64,000 bases of DNA from Candidatus Cloacimonadales bacterium (GTDB taxonomy: Bacteria; Cloacimonadota; Cloacimonadia; Cloacimonadales; JAFGVF01): the NCBI GenBank assembly GCA_963663475.2, contig CAXXJV010000001.1, positions 992,001 through 1,056,000 of the forward strand, written 5' to 3'. Shown one piece after another: positions 38,331 to 57,216 of this stretch. The notes under the pieces were generated by a model. The model saw only the letters and a program-made list of their open reading frames with translations. It was not told where the DNA came from and made no database searches. Made by a program: the position numbers and the translations under genes. Every line of letters starts with the position of its first letter. Positions within the stretch are counted from its first letter, which is position 1.

Positions 38331-38510
38331 CCTACCTCCTTAATAATGTTTTTTATAGTATGAACTTGATCCATTCATGGAAAACTTATCATTTAACAAT
38401 TAGTCTGCAACATATCATACTATTAACGAGCTTAATTCATGATTACATGGAAATGCTCGTTAACTTAATATTAAATAGCTATTTATGAAATAATAGCGAA
38501 TTTACTTGCT

Positions 38511-38630
38511 TTAATTTTCATCCTTTTTTATATACCATAAGAATTCTTCTAACAAATTACTAAACTGTTTAGCTTGTTTACTTCTAGGGTCATATTTTAT
38601 AACAGATAATCAACAACGGGGCTTTTTCCA
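38511..38630 (-). pseudogene. Relic fragment of a second parA 3' end
   Basis: Translates to SVIKYDPRSKQAKQFSNLLEEF, matching the ParA C-terminus SVIEYDPKSKQAKEFTNLLSKF. Confidence 0.75.
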
Positions 38631-38663
38631 ACTCTTTAAATATCTAAGTTAGAATTATTTTTT

Positions 38664-39991: not shown

Positions 39992-40486
39992 TGTTCCCCT
40001 TTATGAATAATATTAAACCAAACTTACATTTATTCAAATTTATTGCAAGGAATTTATCTTTTTTGATAGAAGGCTCTGCTGTTTAGTTGAATTAAAGTAA
40101 TTATTCTAGATTAATGGGTTATAGAGTAAAGGGTTTATCTCAGGAAAAAAGAAAAGCTATAATGAATAACTATAAGAATGTGCAAGCTGGTACATTCAAA
40201 AAAAGTAAGAATTTTTTGAATATTTGTAGTTTTTTATAAATTTCCCACAACTATGTTTAGGATTTTCTTATCTTTCAAAAGATTTTATCATCCTTTTTTT
40301 TTACAGTAGATATATTATTGTATTTCAACTTAATACAATATTTCTATAAAATGTCATAATGATATATATCAAATTAACTTCTTAACAGATATACAGCTTT
40401 CTATAAGTTGGAAATCGAATGATGACTAAATCATTAAAAGATATTTAAAAAGTTAATCGAGTGAGCAAGAGTGAAACATAAAAATC

Positions 40487-41247
40487 TTACCAACCAGTCA
40501 CTAACAGCCTTCTGGCGGCTTTAATCCCACAATTTTGATAATGATTGTATGCTTCAGCAGCTTTTTCTGCTACTTGTGCATCTGTTTGATTTAACAACCA
40601 CACATCGATTGACCATTTAATAGTATATGCCTCAGGTGCCATCAAGTTAGTAGTCCAGACTAAAGGATTAGCACCAGAATCAAAGAGATATTCTGCAAAA
40701 TACTTCTGACTAGCACAAGCTAAGATAATTGCGTCTATCTCTTTATCATTTTGTTGGAAAGTTGGCTCAATATGAAAGTCCATAAGACCGTTATGCCCTA
40801 TATAAGCAACTAAATTCGATTTACCACCAAACTTAAGAGTTGATGATTGAAAAGTTACTTCAGTTTCAAAGGCTGCATTACAGGCATAAAGAAAATCTAA
40901 AGTTGTCTGCTTAATCTCTTTTCCATCATAAGCATCAGCTAAAAGATAGGTATTTGTTGTCTTATGCTTAAAGAAAGCTCTTTCGAGAATAATATCTGTA
41001 GGATTATTGTAAGTTTCTACTAATGTCCACTCTTTACTATTCTTGAAATATGTTTTAATTCCATAGCCACACCCCCAGTATAGATTATTTTTTGGGTCCT
41101 GACCGTTACCAATACCCTTTGGGACTGGAACAATTCCTTGATTCACATTATCACAAGTGCTACAAAAATATGTATAGTTTGTAATCTATTTGCTGATAAT
41201 TCCAATAAGTTCAATAATAATAGTATAAATGTAATTGTGTATTTCAT
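40487..41247 (-). pseudogene. Frameshifted secreted hypothetical protein
   Basis: Upstream frame MKYTITFILLLLNLLELSANRLQTIHIFVAL joins CDNVNQGIVPVP if one T is restored near 41155. Confidence 0.65.
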
Positions 41248-41449
41248 TAAACCCCTTTTTAAAAGCTAAATTATATATATAATTATAAATGTTGAATTAT
41301 CATGTCAAGATATTTTGTTGTATGCTGTGCATTCCTGCTAGGGAGACTGTTCAACCATCAAGCCATTCTTCCCGTTTTTACTTTTAGCAAAAGGTAAAGT
41401 CCCCTTAAAAATTAAAGAGGACTTATGGAGATTTCAATGAGATTTTATC

Positions 41450-42583
41450 TTATTTGTTTAGTATTTCTTTTGCTTTATCAGCATTGCTTGAACTAACGAG
41501 AATTATAGGGCCAGTACAACCCATACCTGTTTCAGCATAGATGTTTTCTTGCCAAAGTTTTTGGCAAGCATCTTCAATTTCTAAGATATCAATACCAGAT
41601 ATTTGATAAGTAACAATCTCTTTTGCAGGTACTTGAATAATAGCATTAGACTTAGCTTTTTGCCCACAATGTAGCTTTAACAGGTCATTTAGTCCTGCTT
41701 TATTAGCTAGAGCAATTTCAGCACAATTAATTTTCATAATCTTATTAGTAGCAGATTTGGCACAGTAGCTTAAAGCACTAACTATCAAAGGAGCTCCAGA
41801 AGCTCTAGAAATAATGTTAATTAGATTAACACTACTATCTTCATTTGTTGGTAAACCAGGACCATAGCCAGAACCACTTGTTTCATAGTTACCACCACTA
41901 GTAAAGGCAGATAAGACTTTGATAAGTAGATTACCTGTTAGTGAATCACATACCATAATATCAGGTGTTCCCATCAGCAAATCATTACCTCGCATCACAC
42001 AACCACCATCAGCCCTAGCAGAAGTAGCAAAGTTTATATCATAGCCATTTGTCTTTAAATCTGTTAATAATTTTTCTACTTGTCTGGCTCCTTCAATATT
42101 AAGGATACCTACTTTTGGTTGTTCGATTCCATTTGCCTTAGCAGTTGCAATAGCAATAATAGTGTTTTTTACCATTGCTTCAACTCGGTTAATGGCTGTA
42201 GTTCCAGTAGTTGTGGCAATATACATTTCTTTTCCTAGACCAGGAGTAATAACTTTACCTACTGTGGAAACTCCGATAGGAAAGTCATAATGCAAAGTAA
42301 CTGCACCATCAATTTTATTATCAGTAAATAGTTTATTCATGATAGCATGAGCAGCTTCTAAGCTGTCTGCTTGATAATGTTCAAAATCACCTAGCTTTTT
42401 GCCAATAAGGACAGGTGTATATTCTTTTAGGTTAAAATTGCTAACTACTTGCTCCCAAATTTTATCATCATGCTCACTCCCAATAGTAGTCAAGGCAATC
42501 TTAACTTTGGGTGCATAATTGCCAGATAAAATATCATCAGCTATCTGGTTAAAGCTTTGGGCTATAACTTGCTTAGTTTTCAT
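41450..42583 (-). CDS. grdD: Glycine reductase complex component C, alpha subunit (PlsX-like)
   Basis: VTLHYDFPIGVSTVG, RGNDLL, SRASGAP, ETGMGCTGP. Confidence 0.93.
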   Translation of the reverse strand: MKTKQVIAQSFNQIADDILSGNYAPKVKIALTTIGSEHDDKIWEQVVSNFNLKEYTPVLIGKKLGDFEHYQADSLEAAHAIMNKLFTDNKIDGAVTLHYDFPIGVSTVGKVITPGLGKEMYIATTTGTTAINRVEAMVKNTIIAIATAKANGIEQPKVGILNIEGARQVEKLLTDLKTNGYDINFATSARADGGCVMRGNDLLMGTPDIMVCDSLTGNLLIKVLSAFTSGGNYETSGSGYGPGLPTNEDSSVNLINIISRASGAPLIVSALSYCAKSATNKIMKINCAEIALANKAGLNDLLKLHCGQKAKSNAIIQVPAKEIVTYQISGIDILEIEDACQKLWQENIYAETGMGCTGPIILVSSSNADKAKEILNK

Positions 42584-42585
42584 TA

Positions 42586-44124
42586 TTAAACCTCTTGTTC
42601 ATTTGTTAATAACTCAGCAGTCTTCTTCATAGCCTGTGCTATCATAATTTTAATTTCATCTTTATCAATATGGTTATCTTCTTTTGCTTGGAGGCCAGGA
42701 TTCTTTTCAATAACCAGTGAGATTCCGTCAAAGAGATTAGTCATCCTTCCTAAGAAAAGAGAACCTTTACCAATAACCATAAAATTATCATAATCTCCTG
42801 CGAGAAGATGCTTTCTCCCATGACCAATAATAGGGACTCCAGAAGGAATATGTCCTTGGGTAGGAGCGAAGCCTTGGTAGCCATGTTCTTCAACAAATTT
42901 AGGCATGTCTTTTCTGTCTAATTGACCAGATTTTACTGCTAAAGCCCCAATCATTTTGATATTTTGGGTTGGTACGTCACCAGCTCCTGCAGGAAGAGTC
43001 ATTTCAGGAATTTGCATTTCAGCTGAGAATTTATTAATATCAGGAATTTTTTTACCAATTTTAGCTAAAGGATCTAGAACAAGAGCGGTAGTTACAGCTT
43101 GGGGAGAGGAGCCATGTCCTACTGTATGGCTACCTACAGAATCAGTTCTAATAATTGGATTTATGCCATCATTCTCACTGATTAGGATAGCAAAAGTTCC
43201 CAGAACATCTTCGAGAATTGGCATGTCTTTTTTTACATGGTCTTTACCATTCATTCCTAGTTTAGCTGTAGCTCCACCAGCCAAAATTACAACATTTTTG
43301 AAGATACCACTTTGGACAAGAGAGGCTGCATTTACAAGAGAATGAGTAGGAGCAGCACAGAATCCACGCATATCAACGCCAGTAGCATTTTTTAAGCCAA
43401 CAACTTCTGCGATAGATTTAGCAAGGTTTCCTCCACCACGCTGGTTTTGGTCTCCAATAGCTTCTTCAGAACACTCAATTACATAGGCTATATCATCAGT
43501 GTTAAGGTCTTTAACCAGATGTAGTAGTGCTAAGACACCAGAAGCTTTTACTGCAAGGTTTTCTAACATATAGTGAGATGATAAATTAGGGTCACTTTTA
43601 TGAGCATCAAGAACGCAAGCGACTAATTGACCTTTTTCATAAAGACCTTGGGCATTGTCAGCAAGATAGCTTTCAAGTTCAGTTTTTTCTATTCCATCTT
43701 TAATTTTATCAGTAAAGTTCTTTAATAATTCATGTTTACTAAATTTCTCTTTGATTCTCTGGGCAAAAGTACTTTCTAATTTTACTAGGTCAAAAACATC
43801 AGAGATTTGGATAAGGCCATAAAAAAGATCTTGAGGTAGAATTTCTCCAAAGAGTCCTTGCGGATTTGCATCTTTATCATAGTTGGCATACCAAGGTTTA
43901 GGAGCACTAGCTAAATCTTCAGGAGTCATGTTACCAATATAAGTTTGATAAGGGGCATAACCAACAACTTCCGCAAAGGAACGAAGATTAGATTCTAAAT
44001 TTTTTACATAATCAGAATTAGGATTCTTGCTTCTTTCGTTAGTTTGAGTTGTTCCATTATGAATCAACATATCAGGAGTATGCACTAGGGCATAAGCAGT
44101 CTTTTTTATAACAGGGAAATTCAT
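42586..44124 (-). CDS. grdC: Glycine reductase complex component C, beta subunit (FabH-like)
   Basis: ECSEEAIGDQNQRGGGN, RGFCAAP, APTQGHIPSG, GKGSLFLGRMTNLFDG. Confidence 0.94.
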   Translation of the reverse strand: MNFPVIKKTAYALVHTPDMLIHNGTTQTNERSKNPNSDYVKNLESNLRSFAEVVGYAPYQTYIGNMTPEDLASAPKPWYANYDKDANPQGLFGEILPQDLFYGLIQISDVFDLVKLESTFAQRIKEKFSKHELLKNFTDKIKDGIEKTELESYLADNAQGLYEKGQLVACVLDAHKSDPNLSSHYMLENLAVKASGVLALLHLVKDLNTDDIAYVIECSEEAIGDQNQRGGGNLAKSIAEVVGLKNATGVDMRGFCAAPTHSLVNAASLVQSGIFKNVVILAGGATAKLGMNGKDHVKKDMPILEDVLGTFAILISENDGINPIIRTDSVGSHTVGHGSSPQAVTTALVLDPLAKIGKKIPDINKFSAEMQIPEMTLPAGAGDVPTQNIKMIGALAVKSGQLDRKDMPKFVEEHGYQGFAPTQGHIPSGVPIIGHGRKHLLAGDYDNFMVIGKGSLFLGRMTNLFDGISLVIEKNPGLQAKEDNHIDKDEIKIMIAQAMKKTAELLTNEQEV

Positions 44125-44157
44125 TTATTAATCCTCACTATATATTTTTTGTTTGGA

Positions 44158-44185
44158 CTGGGCTGTAAGCAATCTCACAGCCCAG
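44158..44185. other. Intercistronic stem-loop between grdB and grdC
   Basis: CTGGGCTGT...ACAGCCCAG; no U-tract on the coding (minus) strand. Confidence 0.6.
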
Positions 44186-44192
44186 ATTTTTA

Positions 44193-45494
44193 TTATTTTT
44201 CAAAGATAGTTTGCTCACTTATCTCAGTTTGTAAGGCTTCTAAAGCTCTTTCAACAAGAGAATAACGTAATTCATATTCCTTATCTTTACTTAGGTTAGG
44301 ATCACCTAATGGATGTGGGATAGCCACAGTAGGTAAGATTCTATTAGCTCCGACAGTAAGAGATATTGGAGTAATAGTACACATGTGAACTACTGGCAAT
44401 AATCTTTCAATTTCTTTAACTAACGTTGCACCGCAACGAGTACAAGTTCCTCATGTAGAGGTTAGAATAACAGCGCTAACACCATCTGCAACTAGCTCTT
44501 TAGCAATTTCAGCACCCCATTTCTTGGCATCAGCAACAGCAGTACCGTTACCAGTAGTAGAGTAGAAGTAATTATGGAGTGAAGCAATTTTACCTTCTTT
44601 AACCATGTTTCTAAGAACATCTACAGGGATTACCCTATCACTGTCTTGGTTAGCATAAGTTGGGTCGTAACCACCATGAGCTGTCTCGTATGTATCAGCA
44701 GTCAAATCACTAACACCAGTGATATCATATTTTCCATACTTTGAAGCACTAGATGATTCGATGTGGTCTGGATTACCTTTTGGAACAATTCCTCCCGAGG
44801 TAACAATAGCAATTTTTGCCTGTGTGATATTCTCTACTGGAGCATGTGGTTCTACACTATCAAAAAGAGGCATTGGAAACTCTGTAGTAAAGTCTTCATT
44901 ACGAAGTTTTTTAACTAAGAGATCAACAGCTCTAGCAGAGCCTCTTTTGTCTGCGAAATAATTAACTCTGATACCACGTGGAATATAGCCTTCAGCTTGT
45001 GGATTTCCAATCTCTTCTTTGTTGATAATCTTTTTTAAGAACTTTCCTAAGGCTGGGAGAGCTTTTCTCATGCCAGCAGCACTATTGCTTGTTTCTAGAA
45101 TGTAAGCATCTTTAACAAACATTTCTACACCAGGATTCTCAGGGTACATGGCTGTGACAACTGGAATGCCCAATTCGTTCTTAACCGCTTGGCAAATAGC
45201 TCCGCAAGCAACACCATATCTTCCTGCATTAAAAGCAGGACCTGCAACAAAGATATCAGGGTTATATTTCTTAATCATTGTGATGATTTCAGCTTTAGCT
45301 TGTTCCATGTTTTCATTGAAATAGGTATCACCACATATCACTGTTGCAACTATCTCTGCCTGTCCCTTCAACTGGCTATTTAAACCTAATCCAGGACCTA
45401 CAAAACCTTGTCTTACTTCAGGTTTATGATTGGCAAATTCTTCTCCACCAATTCCTCCATAGAATTGATTTATATAATGTACAATTTTAATCAA
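44193..45494 (-). CDS. grdB: Glycine reductase selenoprotein B (Sec at TGA 44451-44453, codon 348)
   Basis: ORFs 44451-45494 and 44193-44399 join in frame through TGA giving LTST-U-GTCTRCGAT (UxxCxxC); SECIS-like hairpin CGTTGC-GGT-GCAACG at 44424-44438. Confidence 0.95.
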
Positions 45495-45530
45495 TTTTAA
45501 CTCCTTGATTAAATAAGTGAAATACTTTAC

Positions 45531-45998
45531 CTAAGCAGAACAACTGCTTCTGATTGCATCCATCTCATCACAAATAGCTTCAACATCTAATACCATTTCC
45601 ATCATTCCACATTGGTCGTCATAGACTTGTGGATCGCAATTGTCCTTGATAATAGGCTCAACTACATGGTAAACAGGAAGATCTAAAGCAATGCCAGCAA
45701 GTGGGCCAGCAAATGTAGGGTCTCCAGTGAGAACTGTTTCAGCAGCCAATCCAGCAGCTTCAGCTTCAGCTCCACCTAGAATTACAACTAAATTGTCTTT
45801 TCCTTCTTTTTCTGCAAAATCTTTAACTCTTTTTTGGATCTCCAGATCCATGGCTCCAGCCGCTGTTCAAACAAAGCATTCTGTTGAAGCAAAAATAACT
45901 TCCGCTCCTAATGTTTTTACAACTTCAGCTATAGCAGGTCCTGGTATTCCATCTCTATCACCAATTACTATTGCTTTTTTACCTTTGAATTCTTGCAT
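45531..45998 (-). CDS. grdA: Glycine reductase selenoprotein A (Sec at TGA 45867-45869, codon 44)
   Basis: [22 protein letters not shown]...[16 protein letters not shown] (CxxU); SECIS-like hairpin TGGATC-TGGA-GATCCA at 45835-45850. Confidence 0.95.
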
Positions 45999-46018
45999 TT
46001 TATTATTCTCCTTTATTA

Positions 46019-47305
46019 TTAATATCCTTTGGCACTTAAATTATGAAAGCCAACCTCTGATGTAGAACCTGTAATAAGTTGAATTTCTGCTTCAATAGAA
46101 CCATCTTCTCTTAAGGAACCTTGGTGGCCACCTGCTATCTTATGAGCTGCTTCTGGATGACCAATGACCCTTTGCATTGGCTTTAATACTATCACCTGAT
46201 TAGCATTACCCCCTGTAACAACGGCATCGCCTGCTGGGGTTGAATCTGCTAAAGATTGTGACCCACCATCTTGGCCAGCATATTCATCAGTCATTAAAAC
46301 TGTCTTGATACCTTTGGCTGAGATCTTATTACAGTTCATAACTAAGTCAGCATCAGGATTACCAAAGCCTTCTTCAGAAATTATGACTGCGTCTGCACCC
46401 ATAAACTCAACTAATTTAGCTGTCATATCAGAAGATCTTTTCTTATCTGCTAAATAAACATTTTCGTTTGTAATCACCACTCCTAAGAAATTATATTCCT
46501 TACCATGAAGAGCATATAAATCTTCAATTATTGGATGATTTTGATGGACATAGGTAGGATTTTTATCACAGGCAGAAACACAGTTTCCACTCAAAACAGC
46601 ACCATCAAAGACCTCAGTTGGATAGATTATGCTAGGTATGATTTTTTTAACATCTACTCCATAAACATAAGTATCGTGAAGTAATCCTTGACTCTGTAGC
46701 ATATAGACATAGACTACTTTGGGAAGGTCAGGATATTGGGCTGCTTGCTCTAATAGAGGTTTTGTCTCAAAAGTAGTAATTTGATCAGGCTCTAGATCTT
46801 TAGCAAGTTTTCCTAACCAGGAAGCAGCATTTAATCCAATTAAACGAACAGCTTCTTCATGCTCATGAGCATCAATACCATCTATTGGCTCACAAGTAAT
46901 TACCAGGTTGTTTAGCTTAGAGAATGGAGTGTATTTAGCCCCTTCCCCTGCCATGTCAATTATCCCTTCTTGGAATCCTACAATCCTACCTGTTGTTACA
47001 ACTGCCATACCCTTTAAGACATGAGTTCTTCCTGAACCAACTGTATCTACAGGACCTATCATACCAGGGAAGATAGTTCCAGATCCAGATACTTTTACCC
47101 GTGGCTCAATAACATCTTTAACTGGGATGATTCTGATGTCTTCACCAGGCTTAGCAATATCCAGAGCAAGGGACTTTATTCTCATATCAGTAGATAATTC
47201 AGTCAGCATTTCTTCCTTATTAATATAAAGAATACCTTGGTCAATTCTAGTTGTTTCAGAAAACTGAATATCTTTTATCTCGATTTTTCCAATTTCTAGT
47301 TTCAT
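46019..47305 (-). CDS. grdE: Glycine reductase component B proprotein
   Basis: [47 protein letters not shown]; start at ATG 47305. Confidence 0.92.
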
Positions 47306-47318
47306 TTGCTTATCTCGC

Positions 47319-47654
47319 TTATAGATTTTTATAAATTGCTGCAATAAAGCTGTCTATGTTATCAATATCCTCATCAATTTCATCTGGAGAAATTCTCCCC
47401 ATAATATCACCTTGAGAATAGATAATCATTGCTGGTAAACCCATAACTTTCTGACTAATAGCAAGTCTACGAGCTCCCTTAATATTCAAACTTGCGAATT
47501 TGATTTTATCACTATATTTAGCTTCTAACTCGTGCACTCCTGGCATAAGCTCTTTACAAATTTCACAACCATCACTCCAAAAATCAACAAATACAGCCTT
47601 GTCTTTACATTCAAGAACTTGGGCTTCAAAATTGTCTTTTGTTAATTCAATCAT
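47319..47654 (-). CDS. trxA: Thioredoxin of the glycine reductase system
   Basis: VDFWSDGCEIC, RRLAISQKVMGLP. Confidence 0.88.
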   Translation of the reverse strand: MIELTKDNFEAQVLECKDKAVFVDFWSDGCEICKELMPGVHELEAKYSDKIKFASLNIKGARRLAISQKVMGLPAMIIYSQGDIMGRISPDEIDEDIDNIDSFIAAIYKNL

Positions 47655-47665
47655 GATTTCTCCTT

Positions 47666-47941
47666 TTATATTATTTTACTTAAATCATTTAAGTTGTTTG
47701 AAGTCACTATTTTCTTTATCTCTCCCTTCTCTATTCTTAGAATAGTTGGAATGTTGGTGATACCATACTTAGAAGCTAGCCTCTGATTCTTATAAGCATC
47801 AATTTTAACTAACTTTGTCGATGTTTGTTTAGCATGAATCTTTTCTAAATCAGAAATTGCTTGCATACTGTTAGAATCAATCGGACTCCAGAAGGCTACT
47901 AAGACAGGATCTGCACTATCTCTAACTTTCTTATTCCAATT
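47666..47941 (-). pseudogene. Cys-less thioredoxin-like domain separated from TrxB by an in-frame TAA
   Basis: Same frame as trxB: ...EKYIEEE*NWNKKVRDSADPVLVAFWSP...YGITNIPT. Confidence 0.7.
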
Positions 47942-48874
47942 TTACTCTTCCTCAATATACTTTTCTGCCACAACTGCTGCTACAGCACCGTCGCCAGCTG
48001 CAGTTACTACCTGACGTAAAACCTTATCAGTTACGTCACCACAAGCAAAAATACCAGGAATGTTTGTCTCCATTCTTTCATTTACTTTGATATATTTCTG
48101 AGGACTTAACTCAATTAAACCTTCAACAAAAGTGGAACGAGGAACTGTTCCTACAAACATAAATACTCCATCACAAGCAAACTTACTTTCTTGGCCTGTT
48201 TTTACATTCTTAAGCATGACGTGATCAACCATATCCTCTCCACCAATCTCTGATAGAGTTGAATTCCAGATAAATTCAATTTTTTCATTCTCCATTGCTT
48301 TCTCTTGAGCAACTTTATCTGCATCCATTATGCCTTGGTCATGGATTACTATCATGGTTACTTTATTGACAAACTTAGTTAAGTATATTGCCTCTTCCAC
48401 TGCTGTATTACCATTTCCTACTACAACAATATCTAAATCTTCAAAAAAATCTGCATCACAAGTAGCACAATAGCTTACCCCTCTTCCTCTGAAGGTATTT
48501 TCACCTCTAATTCCTAAAACTCTAGGTTCTGCTCCACTTGCTATGATTAGAGTTTTACTCACAAAAGTCTTGTCTTTAGTTATGATTCTCTTTAAAAAAC
48601 CACCATCTTCCAACTCTACTTTTTCTACCTTGCCCTTGGTAAATTCAACACCAAATTTATCACAATGTTCTTTGAATTTATCCATTATTTCAGGTCCAGA
48701 AGCAGATGGGAAACCTGGATAATTTTCCATCTCACTGGTAGTAGCTGCTTGGCCACCTGTCTTTCTCTTCTGCTCAATAACTAATGTCCTCATCTTAGCA
48801 CGAGCGGCGTATATGGCAGCTGATAAGCCACCTGGTCCACCACCAACAATTATTGTATCATAAATCTTTTCCAT
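47942..48874 (-). CDS. trxB: Thioredoxin-disulfide reductase
   Basis: GGGPGG, ENYPG, GVSYCATCD, GNGNTAVEE, GDV, TAAGDG. Confidence 0.95.
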   Translation of the reverse strand: MEKIYDTIIVGGGPGGLSAAIYAARAKMRTLVIEQKRKTGGQAATTSEMENYPGFPSASGPEIMDKFKEHCDKFGVEFTKGKVEKVELEDGGFLKRIITKDKTFVSKTLIIASGAEPRVLGIRGENTFRGRGVSYCATCDADFFEDLDIVVVGNGNTAVEEAIYLTKFVNKVTMIVIHDQGIMDADKVAQEKAMENEKIEFIWNSTLSEIGGEDMVDHVMLKNVKTGQESKFACDGVFMFVGTVPRSTFVEGLIELSPQKYIKVNERMETNIPGIFACGDVTDKVLRQVVTAAGDGAVAAVVAEKYIEEE

Positions 48875-48886
48875 TAGAACTCCCTT

Positions 48887-49261
48887 CTATTCCATCGCTT
48901 TTAATATTAAATCATAATCAATAGTCTGATAATCTCTGAGGATTTCTTGGTCTCGAATTTCTACAGGCCTATCAGTAAGGAACTTAACATAACTTGCTTT
49001 AGCTTGTTCAATTAATTCTATTGATTCAAAATCAATCCTATTTGCAGGTCCATCGGAAACAACTATAGTCCGGTAGAGTGTTTCATTTGGTTTTAAAGAA
49101 CTATGTAGGGGATGGGTTAATAATTTATAATTCTTATGGAGTAAATCTCTTACCTTGACTATTATTTCAAGGGCAGATATATCTCTATAATCAACTTGCA
49201 ACGAGCTAATATTTAACTCTTTGAACATTGGGTTATTAGTTATTATAATACCTTTTTTCAT
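48887..49261 (-). CDS. grdX: GrdX protein
   Basis: IITNNP, LLTHPLHSSLKPNET, DYQTIDYDLI; first gene of grd operon. Confidence 0.88.
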   Translation of the reverse strand: MKKGIIITNNPMFKELNISSLQVDYRDISALEIIVKVRDLLHKNYKLLTHPLHSSLKPNETLYRTIVVSDGPANRIDFESIELIEQAKASYVKFLTDRPVEIRDQEILRDYQTIDYDLILKAME

Positions 49262-49330
49262 TTTGTCCCCTATTATAAAATGATTAATGAGTAATTATTA
49301 CTCAATATTACTTAATATAATTATATATAT

Positions 49331-49346
49331 TGCATATATCGTGCCA
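49331..49346 (-). promoter_or_regulatory. Sigma-54 (-24/-12) promoter of the grd operon
   Basis: TGGCACGATATATGCA on minus strand (GG-N10-GC), 70 nt upstream of grdX. Confidence 0.82.
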
Positions 49347-49528
49347 AAAATATTAAAATAAGATTATTCTACTTTCTGATAATTAGGGATATTAAAGATA
49401 GTGCTAAAACTTGTGATATCATGCTATGTGAGAGTTATACTTGCAGGAATAAAGAGGGAAAATTATTTACATAGAATAATTTATTAGAGATTATAATAGC
49501 GAAAAAGTAAGAAGATTGGTATAGGATA

Positions 49529-49563
49529 TGGGTAAATAATACCCAATGAGGATTAAATACCCA
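49529..49563. promoter_or_regulatory. Tandem enhancer (UAS) palindromes for a sigma-54 activator
   Basis: TGGGTA-N5-TACCCA (49529-49545) and TGAGGA-N5-TACCCA (49547-49563), about 190-210 bp upstream of the -24 box. Confidence 0.65.
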
Positions 49564-49579
49564 CTTAAAAATAGGGAAA

Positions 49580-50914
49580 TTACTTATTCTGATTCAAATC
49601 AAGCTTCTTTCTCAGGGTTTTTCGATCAATAGAAAGAATCTCAGCAGCTTTAGATTTATTACCTCCAGTAAATTCTAAGACTCTTAGTATGTGTTCTATT
49701 TCTACCTCTTCAAGTGTCTTAAGAATATCACTAGATTCTTTAAGATTAGTTTTCATATAGTCTGGTAAATCGCTTTTAGTTATTAAACCATCATCATCGA
49801 AAACTATAAGTCTCTGGATAATATTCTCCAACTCTCTAACGTTACCAGGCCATTTATAATTTTTAAGCATTTGCAAGACTCCGTCATCAAATTGAGGAAC
49901 TTGTTTATTAAATTCACGGGCGAATTTAGAAGCAAACCAAGAGCTTAATTGCAGGATATCGTTGCCTCTATCTCTGAGAGGAGGAAGGTCTATTGAGATA
50001 ATATTAAGTCTGTAATAGAGGTCTTCTCTAAATTTTCCAAGTTTAACAAGTTGAGCTAAGTTTTTATTAGTAGCAGCTAATATTCTCACATCAATTTTTA
50101 CAGGTTTATTAGCACCGACCATATAGAATTCTTTTTCTTGGAGAACTCGTAATAGTTTAAGTTGGAGCATTGTAGAGGTTTCAGAAATTTCATCAAGAAA
50201 TATTGTTCCCTTATTAGCAGAATGGAAAAAGCCTTCTTTGGTATGGTCTGCTCCAGTGAAAGAACCTTTAATATGGCCAAAGAGTTCGCTCTCTAGGAGA
50301 GATTCTGGTATAGCTCCACAGTTAATGGGTACAAAGGGGGCAGAAGCTCTATAGCCACTGTAGTGAATTGCTCTGGCAACTAATTCTTTACCAGTACCTG
50401 ATTCACCATTAATAATTATTGTAGAGTTGATAGAGCAAGTTTTTTCGATAATCTTAAAGATGCTTTGCATTTCTTGGGAAGAGCCTATAATACCAAACTT
50501 TTCCCCAATTTTAGACAGGGTTGGGTTTTCTAAAGATTCTCTGTCGTTAAGTTTGTTAAGAACTTCCTCAACACTTTTTAAGAGCTCTTCAGAAGTAAAG
50601 GGTTTGGCTAAATAATTTTCAGCTCCAGCTTTGACTGCTTGCACAGCTGAATCAATAGTAGGATAATCTGTAATAATCATTGCTTGAGTTTTAGGGTGGT
50701 GTTCATTGACATATTTGACCACATCTAAGCCATTAATTTCTGGTATCTGCAAGCCAGTAATGAGCAAGTTTATCTTCAGTTCAGTTAGAATTTCACGGGC
50801 TAAGGAGAAGGTTGTAGTTGTATAGACTTGGTAACCTTTACGAACTAAGTTTCTTTTAATTATTTCTAGTGTTTTTTGGTTATCATCAAAGATAAGGATA
50901 CTTGCATTATTCAT
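49580..50914 (-). CDS. NtrC-family sigma-54 activator with aspartate-less receiver domain
   Basis: Receiver FDD...ITG54LQIP...T82D83...K104P; AAA+ GESGTGKE, GSFTGA, FLDEI, FREDLYYRL, WPGNVREL; Fis-type HTH. Confidence 0.92.
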   Translation of the reverse strand: MNNASILIFDDNQKTLEIIKRNLVRKGYQVYTTTTFSLAREILTELKINLLITGLQIPEINGLDVVKYVNEHHPKTQAMIITDYPTIDSAVQAVKAGAENYLAKPFTSEELLKSVEEVLNKLNDRESLENPTLSKIGEKFGIIGSSQEMQSIFKIIEKTCSINSTIIINGESGTGKELVARAIHYSGYRASAPFVPINCGAIPESLLESELFGHIKGSFTGADHTKEGFFHSANKGTIFLDEISETSTMLQLKLLRVLQEKEFYMVGANKPVKIDVRILAATNKNLAQLVKLGKFREDLYYRLNIISIDLPPLRDRGNDILQLSSWFASKFAREFNKQVPQFDDGVLQMLKNYKWPGNVRELENIIQRLIVFDDDGLITKSDLPDYMKTNLKESSDILKTLEEVEIEHILRVLEFTGGNKSKAAEILSIDRKTLRKKLDLNQNK

Positions 50915-52415
50915 TAGTTACCTCTTTATGAACAGGGAATTGGAGGGTGAAAATAGTGCCATTACCTGGGGATGATTGGAATGAGATAGAACCACCATTT
51001 GCTTCGATAAGGTCTTTAGCTACAGAAAGACCGATACCTGTACCAATATTTTCTTTTTTGGTTGAGAATAAGGGATTGAAAATCTTGTGTTTTACTCCTG
51101 GGTCAATACCTATACCATTATCTGAAACTGTAATAATAACATCATTATCGTTTAGTTCACTTGTAATTTCTATCAAGCCAGTTTTATTCTTAATAGCTTG
51201 TTCTGCATTTAGCAGGATATTGATAAGTATCTGATGAAACTGAGATGGATCAATTAAGATAGAAGGTAGGTTAGGATGTAAATATAGTTTGATACTTATA
51301 TCTTTTCTATTGGATCGAGCTTGGACAAGCATCAAGGCAGATTTAATATTCTGATTTACATCAACTCTTTCAAGTTTACTAGCAACTTCACCTGAAAAGT
51401 GCATCAGTTTCTTGATAATATCACGAGCAGATAGGGAAGCATTAATAATCCTGTTAAGATCTTTTTTAGCATAGTCATCTAGGCTATCATTAGTAGAAAG
51501 TAACTGGGAGAAACCTAGAATATCATTGAGAGGTTCATTGAGCTGAATTGCTACACCAGAAGTTAGCTGACCTAAAGTAGCTAATCTATCAGTATGACGT
51601 AATTGCTTGAAATATTGAGTGTTTGATGTATTGGAAAATTTATTTTCAATAATATGATTTAGTTCTTGAGCAATATCTTTGATTAGTTCTTTCTCAACTT
51701 GGAGGAAGGGGTATTCTGCCTGGGAGAGTATTTCTTGGGGATAAGTAATTTCTAAGAAGCCAACAATTTGCTTATTTAATACCAGGTCAGTCTTCATAGA
51801 AAGAATACTTTCCATAAAGTTTTTGGTAGCAACTAAATGATTACAACATTTTATTCTTGCTTGGGCTAAGTGGTTAAAAGTCCAGGTTGAAGCAATTACC
51901 ACAACAGCTTTTTCCAGAAATTGTTCAAGAGAAATATCCGGAACAAGGGCTAGTGATTTAATTTTATAAAGACAGATAATTTCTTTTGCTCTTTGAATTT
52001 GAATAAACTTAGAGAAGAGTGTATCTAGCATGAGGAAAATGAAGGTGCAAATAGAATCGATTTCTTGGCTAGTGCATTTATTATTTATCAAGATATTGAA
52101 ATCATTTTCTTGCTGGTAACTCTTTGTAATTAATCTTAAAGAGGGATTAAGAGCTAATATTTCTTTAATGGAGATGTTTTTCAAAGAATTATAATGGTTA
52201 TTGTTGTCAAGATTATCTATACTTAAAAACCAATTCCTGCTTAAATACTCACTTTTGATAAAATAGTTACCTATCCTGTAAATAAGTACACTATCTGAAT
52301 AGAGGAGGTTATCTTCTAGTACCTTATGTACATATCTAAGATAAGAGCGATAACTCTTATTGTTCTCGCTCTTATTGTTTAATTCTAATATTATTTTCTC
52401 AAGTTTTGATATCAT
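50907..52415 (-). CDS. Cytoplasmic sensor histidine kinase-like protein lacking the H-box His
   Basis: H-box GVAIQLNEPL (canonical AHELNxPL); intact N, G1, F, G2 boxes (NAEQA, DNGIGI, FSTK, GTGIGL); no TM segments. Confidence 0.88.
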   Translation of the reverse strand: MISKLEKIILELNNKSENNKSYRSYLRYVHKVLEDNLLYSDSVLIYRIGNYFIKSEYLSRNWFLSIDNLDNNNHYNSLKNISIKEILALNPSLRLITKSYQQENDFNILINNKCTSQEIDSICTFIFLMLDTLFSKFIQIQRAKEIICLYKIKSLALVPDISLEQFLEKAVVVIASTWTFNHLAQARIKCCNHLVATKNFMESILSMKTDLVLNKQIVGFLEITYPQEILSQAEYPFLQVEKELIKDIAQELNHIIENKFSNTSNTQYFKQLRHTDRLATLGQLTSGVAIQLNEPLNDILGFSQLLSTNDSLDDYAKKDLNRIINASLSARDIIKKLMHFSGEVASKLERVDVNQNIKSALMLVQARSNRKDISIKLYLHPNLPSILIDPSQFHQILINILLNAEQAIKNKTGLIEITSELNDNDVIITVSDNGIGIDPGVKHKIFNPLFSTKKENIGTGIGLSVAKDLIEANGGSISFQSSPGNGTIFTLQFPVHKEVTNE

Positions 52416-52591
52416 GGATTTAGTTAATTATAGCTTCTTAAATCCGTCAAGTACTCTTTAGCCCAAATTGTAGTAGGCTTTTGTGAATAGCTAAGTATCT
52501 GCACTCTTTATTAAACCCTAATTGTGCTATTCAGCAGAGATCTAATGCATTATTTTGGGTTAAAGTCCTACTAGATCATTGAGAGTTAGTA

Positions 52592-54010
52592 TTACAAGGA
52601 TTTCTTATGAAAGGCAAGTCCTATCTTAGGGTTAGTTATTGAATTTGGACCAGCTATACAGCCACCTTCACAAGCCATTACTTCCATGAAATTAGTGTCT
52701 AATTTCCCCTCAAGAAAAGCCTTAATTCTAAGTCTCGTCTTTTTATCAATACCATTGATAATTTCTGCTTTAAAATCTGCATCTGCTGGAAGATTTAACT
52801 GGATTGCTTGACTAACCCCTTGGCTAACTGCAAAGTTACGTGCAGGAGAAGAACCTGTAAGACTAGGATGCTCTGCTGGTAAATCATTCATTTGTATGTC
52901 ACTAGCAGCTAACATAGCTCCAACCTCTTCAAAAGAAATAACATAATCAGTGTTGGGGTCTGATAATGCTTCACATTTTTTTGCAATACAAGGTCCGATA
53001 AAAACACTGATAGAGTCTGCATCTCTTCTTTTAACCTCCTGGGAAGTATATTTCATAGGAGACAGGGTTGTTGAAACAAATTCAAGTTTGTCTGCTTGAT
53101 GCTTTTCTATATAGTTAACATAGGCAGGACAGCAGGAAGAGGTTAAGGCTGGTTTGCGGATTTGAGATAGTTCTAACCATTCATGAGCTTCTTTTTGACC
53201 TGTTTCTATAGCTCCGTAAGCTACTTCAACTACCTCTGAAAAACCTAACTTTAAAAGGCCTGAAATTATCTTTTCGTAGGCAAGAGTAAACTGGCCAGCT
53301 ATAGCTGGAGCAATCATTGCTACTAGTTTTTTCCCTTTTTTTAATTGCTTTATAACAAAGGGCATTTGTGATTTTTCAAAGATAGCACCAAAAGGACAAG
53401 CATTCATGCATTTACCACAAAAAATACACTTAGTGAAATCAATTTTTGCTATACCATTCTCATCTTTAGAGATAGCATCAACAGGGCAGACTTCTTGGCA
53501 GGGGACAGGTATATAAGTTATGGCATGATAAGGGCAGGCTTCTAGGCATTTCCCACAGTTTTTGCAAAGTTCAGCATCTATTTCTGTATGCCCATTCTTA
53601 AAAGATATTGCTTTAGCAGGACAGTTCATCATGCAGGGTCTGGCTACACAGGCTCGGCAAGCATTGGTTACGAAATAGCTATTTTTTGAACAAGCAGAAC
53701 AGCCCTCGTTTAGTACAGTTAAAAAATTAGCATCAATTTGAGGTTGGTCTAATCTCTCTTCTGCAAATTCTTTAATACTTTTTAATTCATCATCTTCCTC
53801 GTAGCCTACACCAAAACAAGCTAAGGCTGCTGATCTAGTCACAGCTCTTTCTTTATAAATACAGCATCTAATGGAAGATTGACTACCTTTAGGTGTCATC
53901 ATAACTGGTAGTTTGTTTAATTCACTTAGGTCTCTATCATTTAAGAGAATGTCAGCAATTCTAACTTTTAGATCTCTTCTTAATAAGATAGTATTATTTA
54001 TCTGAAACAT
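52592..54010 (-). CDS. Monomeric [FeFe]-hydrogenase with ferredoxin domains (group B / HfsD-like)
   Basis: H-cluster motifs TSSCCP, GPCIAKKCE, EVMACEGGCIAGP; IRCCIYKER; several CxxCxxCxxxCP. Confidence 0.9.
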   Translation of the reverse strand: MFQINNTILLRRDLKVRIADILLNDRDLSELNKLPVMMTPKGSQSSIRCCIYKERAVTRSAALACFGVGYEEDDELKSIKEFAEERLDQPQIDANFLTVLNEGCSACSKNSYFVTNACRACVARPCMMNCPAKAISFKNGHTEIDAELCKNCGKCLEACPYHAITYIPVPCQEVCPVDAISKDENGIAKIDFTKCIFCGKCMNACPFGAIFEKSQMPFVIKQLKKGKKLVAMIAPAIAGQFTLAYEKIISGLLKLGFSEVVEVAYGAIETGQKEAHEWLELSQIRKPALTSSCCPAYVNYIEKHQADKLEFVSTTLSPMKYTSQEVKRRDADSISVFIGPCIAKKCEALSDPNTDYVISFEEVGAMLAASDIQMNDLPAEHPSLTGSSPARNFAVSQGVSQAIQLNLPADADFKAEIINGIDKKTRLRIKAFLEGKLDTNFMEVMACEGGCIAGPNSITNPKIGLAFHKKSL

Positions 54011-54012
54011 GA

Positions 54013-54276
54013 TTACTCCTTGATATTGAAAATACTGTTAAGGTAGGCTATTAGCTTATCAACATTGGCTTGACAGAGTAAGTGGTCACCTACCATAACG
54101 AAGGGTGCACTAGAAGCTGCGTATTCTTTACAATTACCTAAGCAAGGAGAACCATAAATTTCAACTTGATTATTATATCTTTCTTCAATCTCTTTTTTGT
54201 AAATTAATATTTCTGAAGAACCCATTAAATGACAAGTCGTTCCACAACATACTGTTATTCTTATTTGATTTTCCAT
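54013..54276 (-). CDS. Thioredoxin-like [2Fe-2S] ferredoxin (NuoE-like)
   Basis: VCCGTTCHLMG...CLGNC...APFV. Confidence 0.82.
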   Translation of the reverse strand: MENQIRITVCCGTTCHLMGSSEILIYKKEIEERYNNQVEIYGSPCLGNCKEYAASSAPFVMVGDHLLCQANVDKLIAYLNSIFNIKE

Positions 54277-54288
54277 TTTATCCTCTCA

Positions 54289-55485
54289 CTATACAAAGTT
54301 TATTTTTACATCTTTTAAATATCTATCTTCCAAGACTTTTCCAATTCGCCTAATAGTATTACGTCTAATACCTAGCTCAATAGGCATGTTAGGGTCTTGA
54401 TGGGCATCATTAATTTTAGTCCCAACATAAAAATCTATAATATCACTGCTCAAGAATAGTTTGACTAACTTAGTTGCCCCATTATCAATTTTAATGTTCT
54501 CTATAAATTCTTTACTTTTTAAGTACTTCAAGCTTTCTCCCATTGTTATCATTCCCTCAGTAACTAAGTCTATACCTGACATAAAGGAAGAACAGGGAAC
54601 AATAGGATCTAAAGTAGAAATATCAACCTCAACATCTCTATTGAGTTGTCTTGCTAATATTTTAGCTGTAGTTCCTCCACAAATAGCTTTTTTACCTTGG
54701 TAACTGTTAAGAATTTCAGCTAAATATTCATCCTTGTCAGGGTTGATGGGAGGACCAGTTAAAACTACTAGTTTTCTAGGCTTACGAATATTTATGACAC
54801 AGCAGGTAATATCATCTTGGGCTTTGTAATTACTATTGGCAGAAGCATGTTCTACAATTTCTTGGGCAAAACTTCTGGCTGATAAATTTGGGTATTTCTT
54901 AACTAGAAATTGAGCAAAATCTTTAACATTCTCTATCCCCCAACCTAAGGGGTAGGCATTTGACCCCATACCTGATTGGTTAACACCATCGGAGAAGAAA
55001 ATCAATTTGTCACCTAATTCTAGCTGAAAATTGGACATGTTTATGGTATATTTCCGTTTGATATTTTCTATTTTTCCTTGATAGCTTTTTATATAAGGAT
55101 CCATCAACTTATCACCCCTAAGCAAGATAAAAGGAGGATTGTCATAATCAACAATACTGCACTTGCCTTGATAATCAATATCGACTATAGTAAATGTTGC
55201 ATAACTTATTTTGCGAATACTATCTACAGGAAGGGTATTCATTATTGTTTCAGCAGCCTTAATAATATCATACTTATTGCAAGAGTAGGTTAAAGCCATT
55301 TTGGCTGTCATAGAAGAAATAACATTGGCTCTGACTCCGCTACCTAGTCCATCTGAAAGAGTTGCTATTATGCGTTTATCATCCTTAACCTTTGTGCTTA
55401 GAAAGGTATCTCCACAGACCTTTTGTCCATATTTAAACTTCTGAACATAATCTACTTCTATAAAGAAATTATTATTTATCTGCAT
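54289..55485 (-). CDS. SpoIIE/PP2C-family serine phosphatase (HfsC-like)
   Basis: CGD, LSDGLGSG, FSDG, DDIT, CGGTT, DLVTEG. Confidence 0.9.
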   Translation of the reverse strand: MQINNNFFIEVDYVQKFKYGQKVCGDTFLSTKVKDDKRIIATLSDGLGSGVRANVISSMTAKMALTYSCNKYDIIKAAETIMNTLPVDSIRKISYATFTIVDIDYQGKCSIVDYDNPPFILLRGDKLMDPYIKSYQGKIENIKRKYTINMSNFQLELGDKLIFFSDGVNQSGMGSNAYPLGWGIENVKDFAQFLVKKYPNLSARSFAQEIVEHASANSNYKAQDDITCCVINIRKPRKLVVLTGPPINPDKDEYLAEILNSYQGKKAICGGTTAKILARQLNRDVEVDISTLDPIVPCSSFMSGIDLVTEGMITMGESLKYLKSKEFIENIKIDNGATKLVKLFLSSDIIDFYVGTKINDAHQDPNMPIELGIRRNTIRRIGKVLEDRYLKDVKINFV

Positions 55486-55494
55486 AACTACTAC

Positions 55495-57216
55495 CTAATC
55501 AGAAACATTTTCAGTTTTATCAATACCAGAGACATCTATAATAGAATTTAAGGCTATCTCAACTTCTGCTGCATTTTCTCCTAAAAGAAAGGCTATTTTC
55601 TGAACCATATCTAAATTCTTGTTAATTACATTTTTTGCCTGACTTATTGTATGGCCTCTAGCTACTGAGGGAAGAGTAATATCTTGGAGAACAGCTCCAA
55701 CTAATTCATGCTTCTCAATAGAGAATATAGATATTTTTAAATACTTTTCTCCATAACGTAATTCCTTATCTAAAATATCATTACCTTTATCAAGAACTTG
55801 CTTAAACATGCCAGTAAAAGATATCATTTTATCTAATCTGGCTCCATCTAAATCAATTGCATCTGTAGCGAATTGCTCATCTAGACCTAAGATTTTAAAG
55901 AAATTATCATTTGTTTCTTGAATAATCATCTCTTTATCAACAATTATAACTCCAGAAGGCATGGTTCTAAAAAGGGCAGAAGCTTTTTTCTGGGCTAATT
56001 TTCTTAAGTAAGAAACACACATGGAAGCTTCAGCTTTCCCCTCAATTATAGCTTGAGCAAATTCACGACAGGTATTATAGCCACAACCACCACAATTTTT
56101 TTCGTCTTCAGGGCGATTCTTTCCTATTTTGCGAAAAACTTCAGTAATAGTCATTTCTTTATTAATATTATTAGTCAGTTCAATATGTTTATAAGCTTGG
56201 CTAATATCTAATTGAGCTGGTCTTTCTGTCTTTTTTCCAATATATTTATTCTGATTTAAAATATCGATTTCTTTAAGTAAATAGGATTTATCTTTAAAAC
56301 AGGCAGGTCCATTAATACAACCACCTTTGCAAGCAAGAGTCTCCAAGAATATGTTGTTAGTGAGTCCTTTTGCTATCAAGTCATTGAAGAGTTTGCATAT
56401 ATCATCAGTGCCAGAAATAGAGTAACATTGATAGTCACTAGTTTTACTTAGAGCAAGAGTATTAATCATACCCCCTTCCACAGGATAGAGACTTCCCTCC
56501 TGGGCACAAGTTGGTAAGAAATCACAATTATTCTCAGCCTCTAAATGATAAGGATCTATCTTTGAATCTGCAAAGAACTTGTGTAAATCTTTGAAGGTTA
56601 TAGCTAAATCTAAGAGGTCTTGGTGATTATCTGATTCCACTTTTTTAGAAATGCAAGGACCAATAAAAGCAATTAAGTAGTCTGGACCAAAATGCTTTTT
56701 TAAGATTCTGCAATGGGCTAATAAGGGTGAATCTATAGGTATTAAAGAAGAAACTAGCTGAGGGTAATATTTCTCAATTAGTTCTACGATTGTAGGACAG
56801 GCTGTAGAAATCTGAATCCCTTTACTAGTACTTAAATACTGAGTTAAGCTACTGTTTACCTCTTCTGCTCCCAAAGCTGTTTCGGAAACATGGCTTATAC
56901 CTAATTTCTTGAGGCCAGAAATTAGTTTTTCCTTGGGTAAATTAGGAAACTCACTTTTCCAAGAAGGGGCTAAAGAGATTATTATTTTTGCATTTCTTGA
57001 TAAGAGAAGTTTTAATTTAGACAGATCATCTCTGATACTCTTGGCATTAACAGGGCAAATATCAACGCAATGACCACAGTGAATGCAGAGTTCAGGAATA
57101 ATAGAAGCATGATGATTTTCAACTTTGATAGCTTTTACTGGACAGCCTCTCACACACTTATAACAGTCTTGGCACTCAGCAAATTTAGTAAATACAGGTA
57201 AATTATTAGGGTTCAT
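55495..57216 (-). CDS. Putative sensory [FeFe]-hydrogenase with C-terminal FeS and PAS domains (group C, HydS/HfsB-like)
   Basis: Two N-terminal 4Fe-4S motifs; STACP, GPCISKKVE, ETLACKGGCINGP; NCGGCGYNTC; PAS-like MPSGVIIVD; IAFLLGE. Confidence 0.9.
   Translation of the reverse strand: MNPNNLPVFTKFAECQDCYKCVRGCPVKAIKVENHHASIIPELCIHCGHCVDICPVNAKSIRDDLSKLKLLLSRNAKIIISLAPSWKSEFPNLPKEKLISGLKKLGISHVSETALGAEEVNSSLTQYLSTSKGIQISTACPTIVELIEKYYPQLVSSLIPIDSPLLAHCRILKKHFGPDYLIAFIGPCISKKVESDNHQDLLDLAITFKDLHKFFADSKIDPYHLEAENNCDFLPTCAQEGSLYPVEGGMINTLALSKTSDYQCYSISGTDDICKLFNDLIAKGLTNNIFLETLACKGGCINGPACFKDKSYLLKEIDILNQNKYIGKKTERPAQLDISQAYKHIELTNNINKEMTITEVFRKIGKNRPEDEKNCGGCGYNTCREFAQAIIEGKAEASMCVSYLRKLAQKKASALFRTMPSGVIIVDKEMIIQETNDNFFKILGLDEQFATDAIDLDGARLDKMISFTGMFKQVLDKGNDILDKELRYGEKYLKISIFSIEKHELVGAVLQDITLPSVARGHTISQAKNVINKNLDMVQKIAFLLGENAAEVEIALNSIIDVSGIDKTENVSD

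Follow-up and report, generated by a model that had tools for sequence, protein, structure and literature searches.

A histidine-less kinase and an aspartate-less sigma-54 activator encoded as a pair ahead of a glycine reductase operon in Cloacimonadota

The gene pair

We examined a 64,000-nucleotide stretch of a Candidatus Cloacimonadales genome (assembly GCA_963663475.2, contig CAXXJV010000001.1, positions 992,001 to 1,056,000), called the window below, whose coordinates are used throughout. Our subject is a pair of overlapping genes on its minus strand, encoding a homolog of two-component sensor kinases and a sigma-54 activator of the NtrC type. An earlier note, made from the sequence alone, had described both proteins as lacking their phosphorylation sites and had proposed that they signal without phosphotransfer. 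The two genes and their parts are as follows.

50907..52415, minus strand: His-less sensor kinase homolog (pseudo-histidine kinase), 502 amino acids, cytoplasmic (open reading frame with HisKA and HATPase_c)
51630..52415, minus strand: sensor region, residues 1-262, two GAF-like alpha/beta domains (AlphaFold2 and Foldseek)
51381..51629, minus strand: DHp (HisKA) domain, residues 263-345 (Pfam HisKA on residues 281-341)
51543..51548, minus strand: codons of Ile290-Gln291, where the family has His-Glu
50910..51380, minus strand: CA (HATPase_c) domain, residues 346-502, N, G1, F, and G2 boxes intact
49580..50914, minus strand: sigma-54 enhancer-binding protein with an aspartate-less receiver, 444 amino acids (open reading frame, Pfam domains, orthologs)
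50555..50914, minus strand: pseudo-receiver domain, residues 1-120 (Response_reg; closest solved structure Aquifex NtrC1)
50753..50755, minus strand: Gly54 codon, at the position of the phospho-acceptor Asp (sequence read)
50666..50668, minus strand: Asp83 codon, T+1 position (sequence read), within the predicted kinase interface
49733..50491, minus strand: AAA+ sigma-54 interaction domain and lid, residues 142-394 (Sigma54_activat, AAA_lid_14)
49601..49717, minus strand: Fis-type helix-turn-helix, residues 400-438 (HTH_8)

Both frames are full length, as had been noted, and share 8 nt (ATGAATAA). In Pfam the kinase matches HisKA with 31.4 bits (cut-off 26.9) and HATPase_c with 80.9 bits, and the activator matches Response_reg (77.6 bits), Sigma54_activat (228 bits), AAA_lid_14 (84 bits), and HTH_8 (47.6 bits). 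The nearest NCBIfam models are AtoS/ZraS for the kinase and NtrC/AtoC for the activator, all under their equivalog cut-offs. The genome holds no close paralog of either gene, the next-best matches standing at 32 per cent for the kinase and 46 per cent for the activator (AAA+ part only), and it encodes rpoN (346.8 bits).

The H-box of the kinase (minus strand, 51572-51525) reads G-Q-L-T-S-G-V-A-I-Q-L-N-E-P-L-N, with ATT at 51546-51548 (Ile290) and CAG at 51543-51545 (Gln291). The acidic residue that normally comes right after the H-box His has a catalytic role. The receiver reads ...L-I-T-G-L-Q-I-P... and ...I-I-T-D-Y-P-T on the minus strand at 50770-50654, with GGC at 50753-50755 (Gly54) and GAT at 50666-50668 (Asp83). 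When it is aligned to the receiver of Aquifex NtrC1 (1zy2, 1ny5), Gly54 falls on the phospho-Asp and Asp83 on the Gly at T+1. All four residues are those that the earlier note had read.

Sequencing or assembly errors, or fresh pseudogenes, can be dismissed as the source of these substitutions and we count that explanation as refuted: contigs from three runs of metagenomes in three other studies (word depth 64.5, 104.6, and 43.6) each cover 49203-52500 unbroken and have 15, 15, and 29 differences, none of them in the four signature codons and none an indel, and ten orthologs from separate assemblies share the changes.

Residues 1-262 of the kinase have no Pfam match. An AlphaFold2 model of this region, built with twenty-three sequences (mean predicted local distance difference test (pLDDT) 88; predicted template modelling score (pTM) 0.76), consists of two alpha/beta domains with a connecting helix at 116-156. 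Its best Foldseek matches are the tandem GAF modules of PDE5/6, phytochrome GAF-PHY, and CyaB2 (E 2.7e-5 to 1e-3). Cys148 (codon 51972-51974), in the K-E-L-x-C-L-Y stretch of this connecting helix, is invariant in kinases both degenerate and canonical (24/24 and 23/23), and could be where the sensor has a ligand or redox site.

Orthologs, selection and predicted docking

Of 8000 candidates scored in a protein search with the kinase, 376 reached E ≤ 0.001. The ten best, P0001-P0010, are 46–100 per cent identical over 89–100 per cent of the query, and the group that follows stands at 35–39 per cent identity over about 71 per cent. We aligned the ten with fourteen of the twenty-one proteins in this second group, omitting P0016, P0018, P0022, P0024, P0027, P0029, and P0030. 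Position 290 of the ten clade kinases is I, T, S, T, T, T, N, M, N, and N, with His in none, and position 291 is Gln in every one; the fourteen canonical kinases all have His at 290 and Glu at 291. Apart from position 290, DHp helix 1 is nearly invariant within the clade. The residues of the N, G1, F, and G2 boxes are invariant in clade and canonical kinases alike, which bears out the earlier description of the ATP-binding site as intact; N399, N403, D432, G434, G436, F446, F450, G458, T459, G460, G462, and L463 are the same in all ten.

Other positions set the clade apart from the fourteen canonical kinases. R342 is replaced by G, C368 by S, H467 by K, F449 by L, and T451 by S in 10/10 clade kinases, and L339 is replaced by H and H473 by N in 9/10. 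No His of the DHp domain is common to all ten in the alignment, and the DHp of P0010, the most divergent kinase ortholog, has no His at all (Ile339, Asn274, and Asn290). Searching again with the most divergent member as query brought up the same ten clusters and nothing further.

A search with the receiver alone returned nineteen proteins at E ≤ 1e-10 among 261 candidates, of which we aligned eighteen (P0137 was omitted). Nine activators at 74–100 per cent identity all read I-T-G-L and I-T-D-[YF]-P, and the remaining ones, at 56 per cent identity or less, are canonical. When ten clade activators were compared with thirty canonical ones, only fourteen positions proved clade-specific. D54 is replaced by G in 10/10 clade activators and in 0/30 canonical ones (Asp in 30/30), and G83 by D, again in 10/10 versus 0/30 (Gly in 30/30). 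Judged from the alignment, these are the two radical changes of the clade and amount to a reciprocal exchange between neighbouring strands. Close orthologs thus keep neither phosphorylation site: the His is absent from 10/10 kinases and the Asp from 10/10 activators.

Among the eighteen aligned activators D11, T82, and K104 are invariant and D10 is nearly so, and none of the four is among the clade-specific changes. The Walker A, xFTGA loop, and Walker B residues are invariant too, so that the alignments and Pfam agree with the earlier note that the rest of the receiver site, the AAA+ motifs, and the helix-turn-helix are intact. Within the sigma-54 contact loop (50248-50265, residues 217-222), eight of nine clade activators have GSFTGA; P0129 and the canonical relatives have GAFTGA. 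By its sequence the domain fits the definition of an aspartate-less receiver in the excerpts of PMC12632262, a profile match from which the acceptor D is absent. The same excerpts give Ala or Gly at T+1 in 74 per cent of receivers, and report that in pseudo-receivers about 80 per cent of DD2 residues are non-acidic and that T and K fall to about 65 per cent. Keeping all four of the other active-site residues is unusual for a pseudo-receiver and argues that the pocket is still in use.

We then looked for the pair in 232 Cloacimonadota genomes. A kinase homolog at E ≤ 1e-40 is present in eighty-three, and the thirty best-scoring places were read. Three of these kinases lack the His (genomes G000, G104 at 78 per cent, and G105 at 66 per cent), all from one genus, and 27/27 of the others read A-H-E. 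An activator follows the kinase in 29/30 places (one contig ends first). G54 and D83 occur in the same three His-less loci, and the other 26/26 activators have Asp and Gly; the matched loss is therefore found in 3/3 contigs with both degenerate genes readable and in 0/26 canonical pairs. Of eighty loci from a metagenome scan, one belongs to the degenerate clade, L055, which is the G105 contig again, and the one clade locus of the first genome scan, L001, lies on the same contig as G104. The DNA context of the degenerate pair comes from three loci, and the seven other orthologs are metagenomic proteins, among which the equal length of their contigs was our one ground for presuming the kinase/activator partners P0005/P0123, P0006/P0124, P0008/P0122, and P0010/P0129.

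In a quick maximum-likelihood tree of forty activators, the eight degenerate rows form one clade (Shimodaira–Hasegawa-like approximate likelihood ratio test (SH-aLRT) 100) on a stem of 0.48 changes per column. Its sister (support 97) is a canonical group made up of families f12, f17, and f6, and the degenerate label needs one change on the tree. On this topology, the degenerate pair arose once, from a canonical His/Asp system.

The three orthologs with DNA have a synonymous difference (pS) of 0.73–0.85, which is saturated, so that bounds and ratios of the nonsynonymous rate (dN) are usable but the ratio to the synonymous rate (dN/dS) proper is not. The dN is 0.15–0.28 for the kinase and 0.06–0.09 for the activator, and dN/dS is 0.02–0.11 where dS can be computed. 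No stops or frameshifts occur in the ten kinase orthologs, all of which are open reading frames. Neither gene is decaying neutrally and both are under purifying selection. The earlier claim that random decay is unlikely holds up, with the same substitutions in every ortholog found and synonymous sites saturated without stops.

We folded a dimer of the kinase DHp-CA region (residues 263-502, two copies) with the receiver (residues 1-125), alongside three controls. The complex reached an interaction prediction score from aligned errors (ipSAE) of 0.64 (runs 0.66, 0.64, and 0.64), and the best control 0.00; the mark applied to this score is reached by 58/80 solved complexes and 2/110 mismatched pairs. 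The runs have at least 87 per cent of contacts in common and partner pLDDT of at least 83. Predicted contacts involve kinase positions 290, 293-305, 308, and 327-338 and, on the receiver, helix 1 (12-25), 83-86, and 104-108, and in the model these are the contacts of classical DHp-receiver docking. What the predicted complex indicates is likeness to canonical docking, not binding. Within the clade, predicted-interface positions are invariant at 12/18 in the DHp (25/65 elsewhere) and at 13/16 in the receiver (63/104 elsewhere). Position 290 is the single hypervariable position of the predicted interface, and 290, 291, 54, and 83 all lie at or beside the centre of the predicted docking surface.

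The glycine reductase operon and surroundings

The presumed target of the pair lies downstream of the activator gene on the same strand.

41450..49261, minus strand: glycine/sarcosine reductase operon grdX-trxB-trxA-grdE-grdA(Sec)-grdB(Sec)-grdC-grdD (NCBIfam), where Sec is selenocysteine
49529..49564, minus strand: candidate upstream activator sites, a TGGGTA repeat and the palindrome TGGGTA-N5-TACCCA (49529-49545), conserved with G104
49332-49346, minus strand: candidate -24/-12 (sigma-54-type) promoter TGGCAC-N5-ATGCA, one mismatch to consensus

In-frame TGA codons are read as selenocysteine in GrdA (U43) and GrdB (U348). The -24/-12 candidate stands about 70 nt ahead of grdX within the 318-nt spacer between activator and grdX. 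Aligned with G104, it is surrounded by forty-five identical bases, and the candidate upstream activator sites also fall in a conserved block; outside these blocks the two spacers have drifted apart and are of unequal length. Gene order from the kinase through grdD is the same in G104, on one contig, and the G105 contig stops inside the activator. The order and overlap of kinase and activator are kept in all three contigs.

GrdE at E ≤ 1e-60 is present in 8/232 genomes of the phylum. Within the genus, grdE and the pair occur in the same 3/7 genomes, and the other four (96–100 per cent complete) are without both. The other Cloacimonadota that carry grd (G102, G142, G138, and G202) have no such pair beside grdX, and in none of the four do the 500 nt ahead of that gene contain a -24/-12-like site. 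In G102, G142, and G138 (L148, L149, and L150), grdX is preceded by a TTGACA box with repeated TATCGATAA-like elements on its flanks. These repeats suggest a different, repressor-type control of those grd operons.

From the conserved promoter region and the co-occurrence within the genus, the pair probably switches on the glycine reductase genes, as the earlier note had supposed. By the excerpts of PMC7438776, the grd operon of Clostridioides difficile is not read from a -24/-12 promoter. Our literature search found no description of a sigma-54 activator of grd, and a paper on the Clostridiales sigma-54 regulon does not contain the term glycine reductase.

Canonical relatives of the pair have other neighbours. 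Among sixteen loci of His-containing homologs, none has a grd gene within the 16.5–17 kb fetched. At the two annotated ones, L038 and L043, the pair adjoins a Glu/Leu/Phe/Val dehydrogenase gene and PPDK_N-domain proteins, and open reading frames sized like these neighbours recur at L037, L040, and L051. The PPDK_N (ATP-grasp-like) proteins near the pair and the dehydrogenase gene are large (L038 9230-14978 and L043 815-3760); one of this type is fused to a nucleotidyltransferase domain and is followed by a metallophosphoesterase. Six of the sixteen loci have a -24/-12 site with zero or one mismatch on the same strand, 170–320 nt after the activator. These canonical sisters, at 35–39 per cent identity for the kinase and 50–61 per cent for the activator, share the domain order, gene order, overlap, invariant Cys148 helix, and sigma-54-type promoter after the activator. 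They differ in having His-Glu (27/27 kinases) and Asp54 with Gly83 (26/26 activators), and in lying beside glutamate dehydrogenase. The gene neighbourhoods give the impression of a sigma-54 switch that governs amino-acid catabolism and, in one lineage, has been redirected to grd.

Upstream of the kinase are four more genes, which resemble a sensory-hydrogenase signalling cluster (52592-57216).

55495-57216, minus strand: Fe-hydrogenase-like protein, 573 amino acids, with an extra C-terminal region
54289-55485, minus strand: SpoIIE-type PP2C phosphatase
54013-54276, minus strand: Cys-rich protein, 87 amino acids
52592-54010, minus strand: second Fe-hydrogenase-like protein with several 4Fe-4S motifs, directly upstream of the kinase

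The gene at 52592-54010 is 80–81 per cent conserved in 3/4 genus members without the pair and is not upstream of the kinase in G105. A segment of about 33500-52500, which includes the pair and the grd operon, is missing at the equivalent locus in G107, of the same genus; there homologs of 18.4–23.6 kb of the window, in inverted order, come right after the hydrogenase-like gene. Within the segment are a ParA gene (39215-39991) with no match in 4/4 genus members without the pair, and a ParB-like gene (38664-39239). The segment may be an island or an integrated element.

Mechanism, alternatives and known systems

We put at about 60 per cent the probability that this is a degenerate NtrC-type pair in which His-to-Asp phosphotransfer is impossible and the partners are still joined through direct binding. 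Asp83 would then reach from its neighbouring strand into the Mg/Thr/Lys pocket (D10, D11, T82, and K104), replacing the phosphoryl group or plugging the site, and the receiver would thereby be held in one fixed state. Control would pass to stoichiometric binding of the DHp/CA part of the pseudo-kinase to the receiver over the old docking surface. The GAF-like sensor would set this binding, probably with ATP or ADP in the CA domain, and binding would hold back or release assembly of the AAA+ ring. The ring would in turn drive sigma-54 RNA polymerase at the grdX promoter, turning glycine reductase on. In NtrC1 the receiver represses ring assembly until it is phosphorylated. If Asp83 is a phosphomimic, then by homology to NtrC1 the activator would be always on, and the pseudo-kinase would act as an anti-activator in the way that NifL restrains NifA. 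Signalling by contact, its dependence on ATP or ADP, and the phosphomimic role of Asp83, all proposed in the earlier note, are inferences here as well.

Several points weigh against direct binding as the means of control. The degenerate state arose in one event on one branch, so its co-occurrence in both partners is no statistical evidence of correlated evolution. Relative to the AAA+ domain, dN of the DHp is 3.1, 2.8, and 4.8 times as high in the three degenerate pairs (0.5–1.3 in six canonical ones) and that of the CA domain 4.4, 4.2, and 5.9 times (0.6–2.0); for the receiver the ratio is 1.3–2.7 (0.9–1.4). Measured against its partner, the kinase transmitter thus evolves 3–6 times faster than the transmitters of canonical pairs do, which is a partial relaxation and could mean that its role is fading. 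Of the proposal that the two losses co-occur under purifying selection, the match in 3/3 contigs and the low dN stand, qualified by the single event and the partly relaxed kinase. The docking score, for all its separation from the controls, may be a memory of solved kinase-receiver complexes. At the promoter, a sigma-70-like TTGGCA-16-TATAAT (11/12; 49320-49347, minus strand) overlaps the -24/-12 candidate, and the block conserved with G104 spans both promoter readings; the sigma-54 promoter of the earlier note, conserved and one mismatch from the consensus, stays a candidate beside this competing match. The intact ATP site and the new His339 (9/10 kinases) may leave room for some catalysis. 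Lastly, as far as the sequence shows, binding could activate as well as inhibit. The faster evolution of the kinase also fits a lost catalytic constraint with the fold, nucleotide site, and partner surface retained.

Phosphorylation might instead persist through non-canonical residues, with the clade-specific His339 at the top of DHp helix 2, level with the former His, or a Ser/Thr as donor and Asp83, Thr53, or Thr82 of the receiver as acceptor; in one variant, the kinase has turned into a Ser/Thr kinase that is reversed by the neighbouring PP2C phosphatase. The invariant N, G1, F, and G2 boxes would suit this, as would L339H (9/10) with R342G (10/10), residue 338 in the predicted receiver interface, the retained D10, D11, T82, and K104, and the SpoIIE-type PP2C gene upstream at 54289-55485. 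CheY D57N can reportedly be phosphorylated on the neighbouring Ser56. We nonetheless regard this explanation as unlikely. P0010 has a DHp domain without any His, yet its presumed partner P0129 keeps G54 and D83, and the catalytic Glu beside the His site is Gln in 10/10 kinases. In G105 the kinase has neither the PP2C gene nor the hydrogenase-like genes upstream of it. In-line attack by Asp83 also looks sterically unlikely, with T+1 at the mouth of the site where the donor enters, as we infer from the geometry in the excerpts of PMC12632262. Two narrower ideas were rejected. His339 or His274 as a general alternative acceptor fails since both are absent from P0010, and a partner switch with the upstream PP2C and hydrogenase-like genes fails since G105 lacks these genes ahead of its kinase, which puts them outside the conserved unit.

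It seems to us quite unlikely that the two proteins no longer cooperate, leaving the activator constitutive or otherwise controlled (by expression level or another ligand) and the kinase a decaying relic or in a new job. The accelerated transmitter speaks for such uncoupling, as do a kinase identity that falls to 46 per cent where the activator is at 74 per cent and a HisKA domain that Pfam no longer finds in P0010. A relic at saturated synonymous sites, however, would carry stops or frameshifts, and there are none in ten orthologs; dN/dS is low where computable (about 0.04–0.1), DHp helix 1 is nearly invariant and the ATP boxes fully so, gene overlap and order are kept in all three contigs, and conservation is higher on the predicted docking surface than in the remaining DHp.

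In our view it is very improbable that the sites have moved rather than been lost (the Asp to the next strand by the G54/D83 exchange and the His to helix 2 by L339H in 9/10), or that Asp83 is loaded by acetyl phosphate. The first would make this a re-registered phosphotransfer pair. In the second, the His-less kinase would be only a signal-controlled phosphatase or binder, and grd would be under a product-feedback loop, acetyl phosphate being the product of glycine reductase according to the excerpts of PMC12674515.

A degenerate pair joined by direct binding would have its nearest likeness in NifL-NifA of Azotobacter and Klebsiella, where a kinase-like anti-activator and a sigma-54 activator are encoded by co-expressed genes (PMC12998190, in part). 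NifL, according to the same source, is kinase-like and non-phosphorylating, binds ADP, and holds NifA by stoichiometric contact. The Cloacimonadota activator keeps a receiver-like domain, the part of it that was folded with the kinase, and the predicted contact is DHp-receiver docking. NifA lacks a receiver, carries a GAF domain, and is gripped at its AAA+ domain. NifL senses by PAS-FAD, whereas the Cloacimonadota kinase would sense by GAF-like domains, and between the two kinases we saw no likeness in sequence beyond that of the general kinase family.

DivL of Caulobacter is said to have Tyr in place of the acceptor His. It is a kinase homolog without that His whose DHp/CA region has been put to a new use, binding a response regulator and sensing the state it is in (PMC4211667, in part). 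Its partner DivK, however, can be phosphorylated and is served by other kinases, whereas the Cloacimonadota partner is without the Asp and is encoded in the same operon.

On the receiver side, FleQ and other atypical regulators have a receiver fold without the acceptor Asp, and FleQ is also a sigma-54 activator; the excerpts of PMC12632262 give acidic residues of aspartate-less receivers as enriched in the beta3-alpha3 and beta4-alpha4 loops, T+1 included. Typical pseudo-receivers also lose DD2, T, or K, whereas the Cloacimonadota receiver keeps all four residues, has the D/G exchange, and is accompanied by a pseudo-kinase in its operon. By the same excerpts, 0.9 per cent of HisKA domains are without the His and 2.0 per cent of receivers without the Asp, only CmrT and FrzS among twenty atypical regulators have partners, the others being orphans, and this 2025 review calls the on/off switching of pseudo-receivers a mystery (PMC12632262).

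Pseudo-kinases (DivL and NifL) and aspartate-less receivers (FleQ) are thus known already. Our literature search, with subscription journals and supplements outside its range, found no description of a cognate operon pair with both sites gone or of a D/T+1 exchange. What the locus appears to add is a receiver-containing counterpart of NifL-NifA that has a canonical sister group.

The pair offers a natural case of an operon with two degenerate partners and a known likely target promoter, and canonical sisters at 35–61 per cent identity are at hand for swaps. It would make testable whether a kinase-receiver docking surface alone can carry a signal, whether an Asp from a neighbouring strand can replace the phosphoryl group, and how a two-component system could become a partner switch like NifL-NifA. 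Cloacimonadota are amino-acid fermenters of digesters and wastewater, and the pair is a first candidate regulator of glycine reductase in this phylum.

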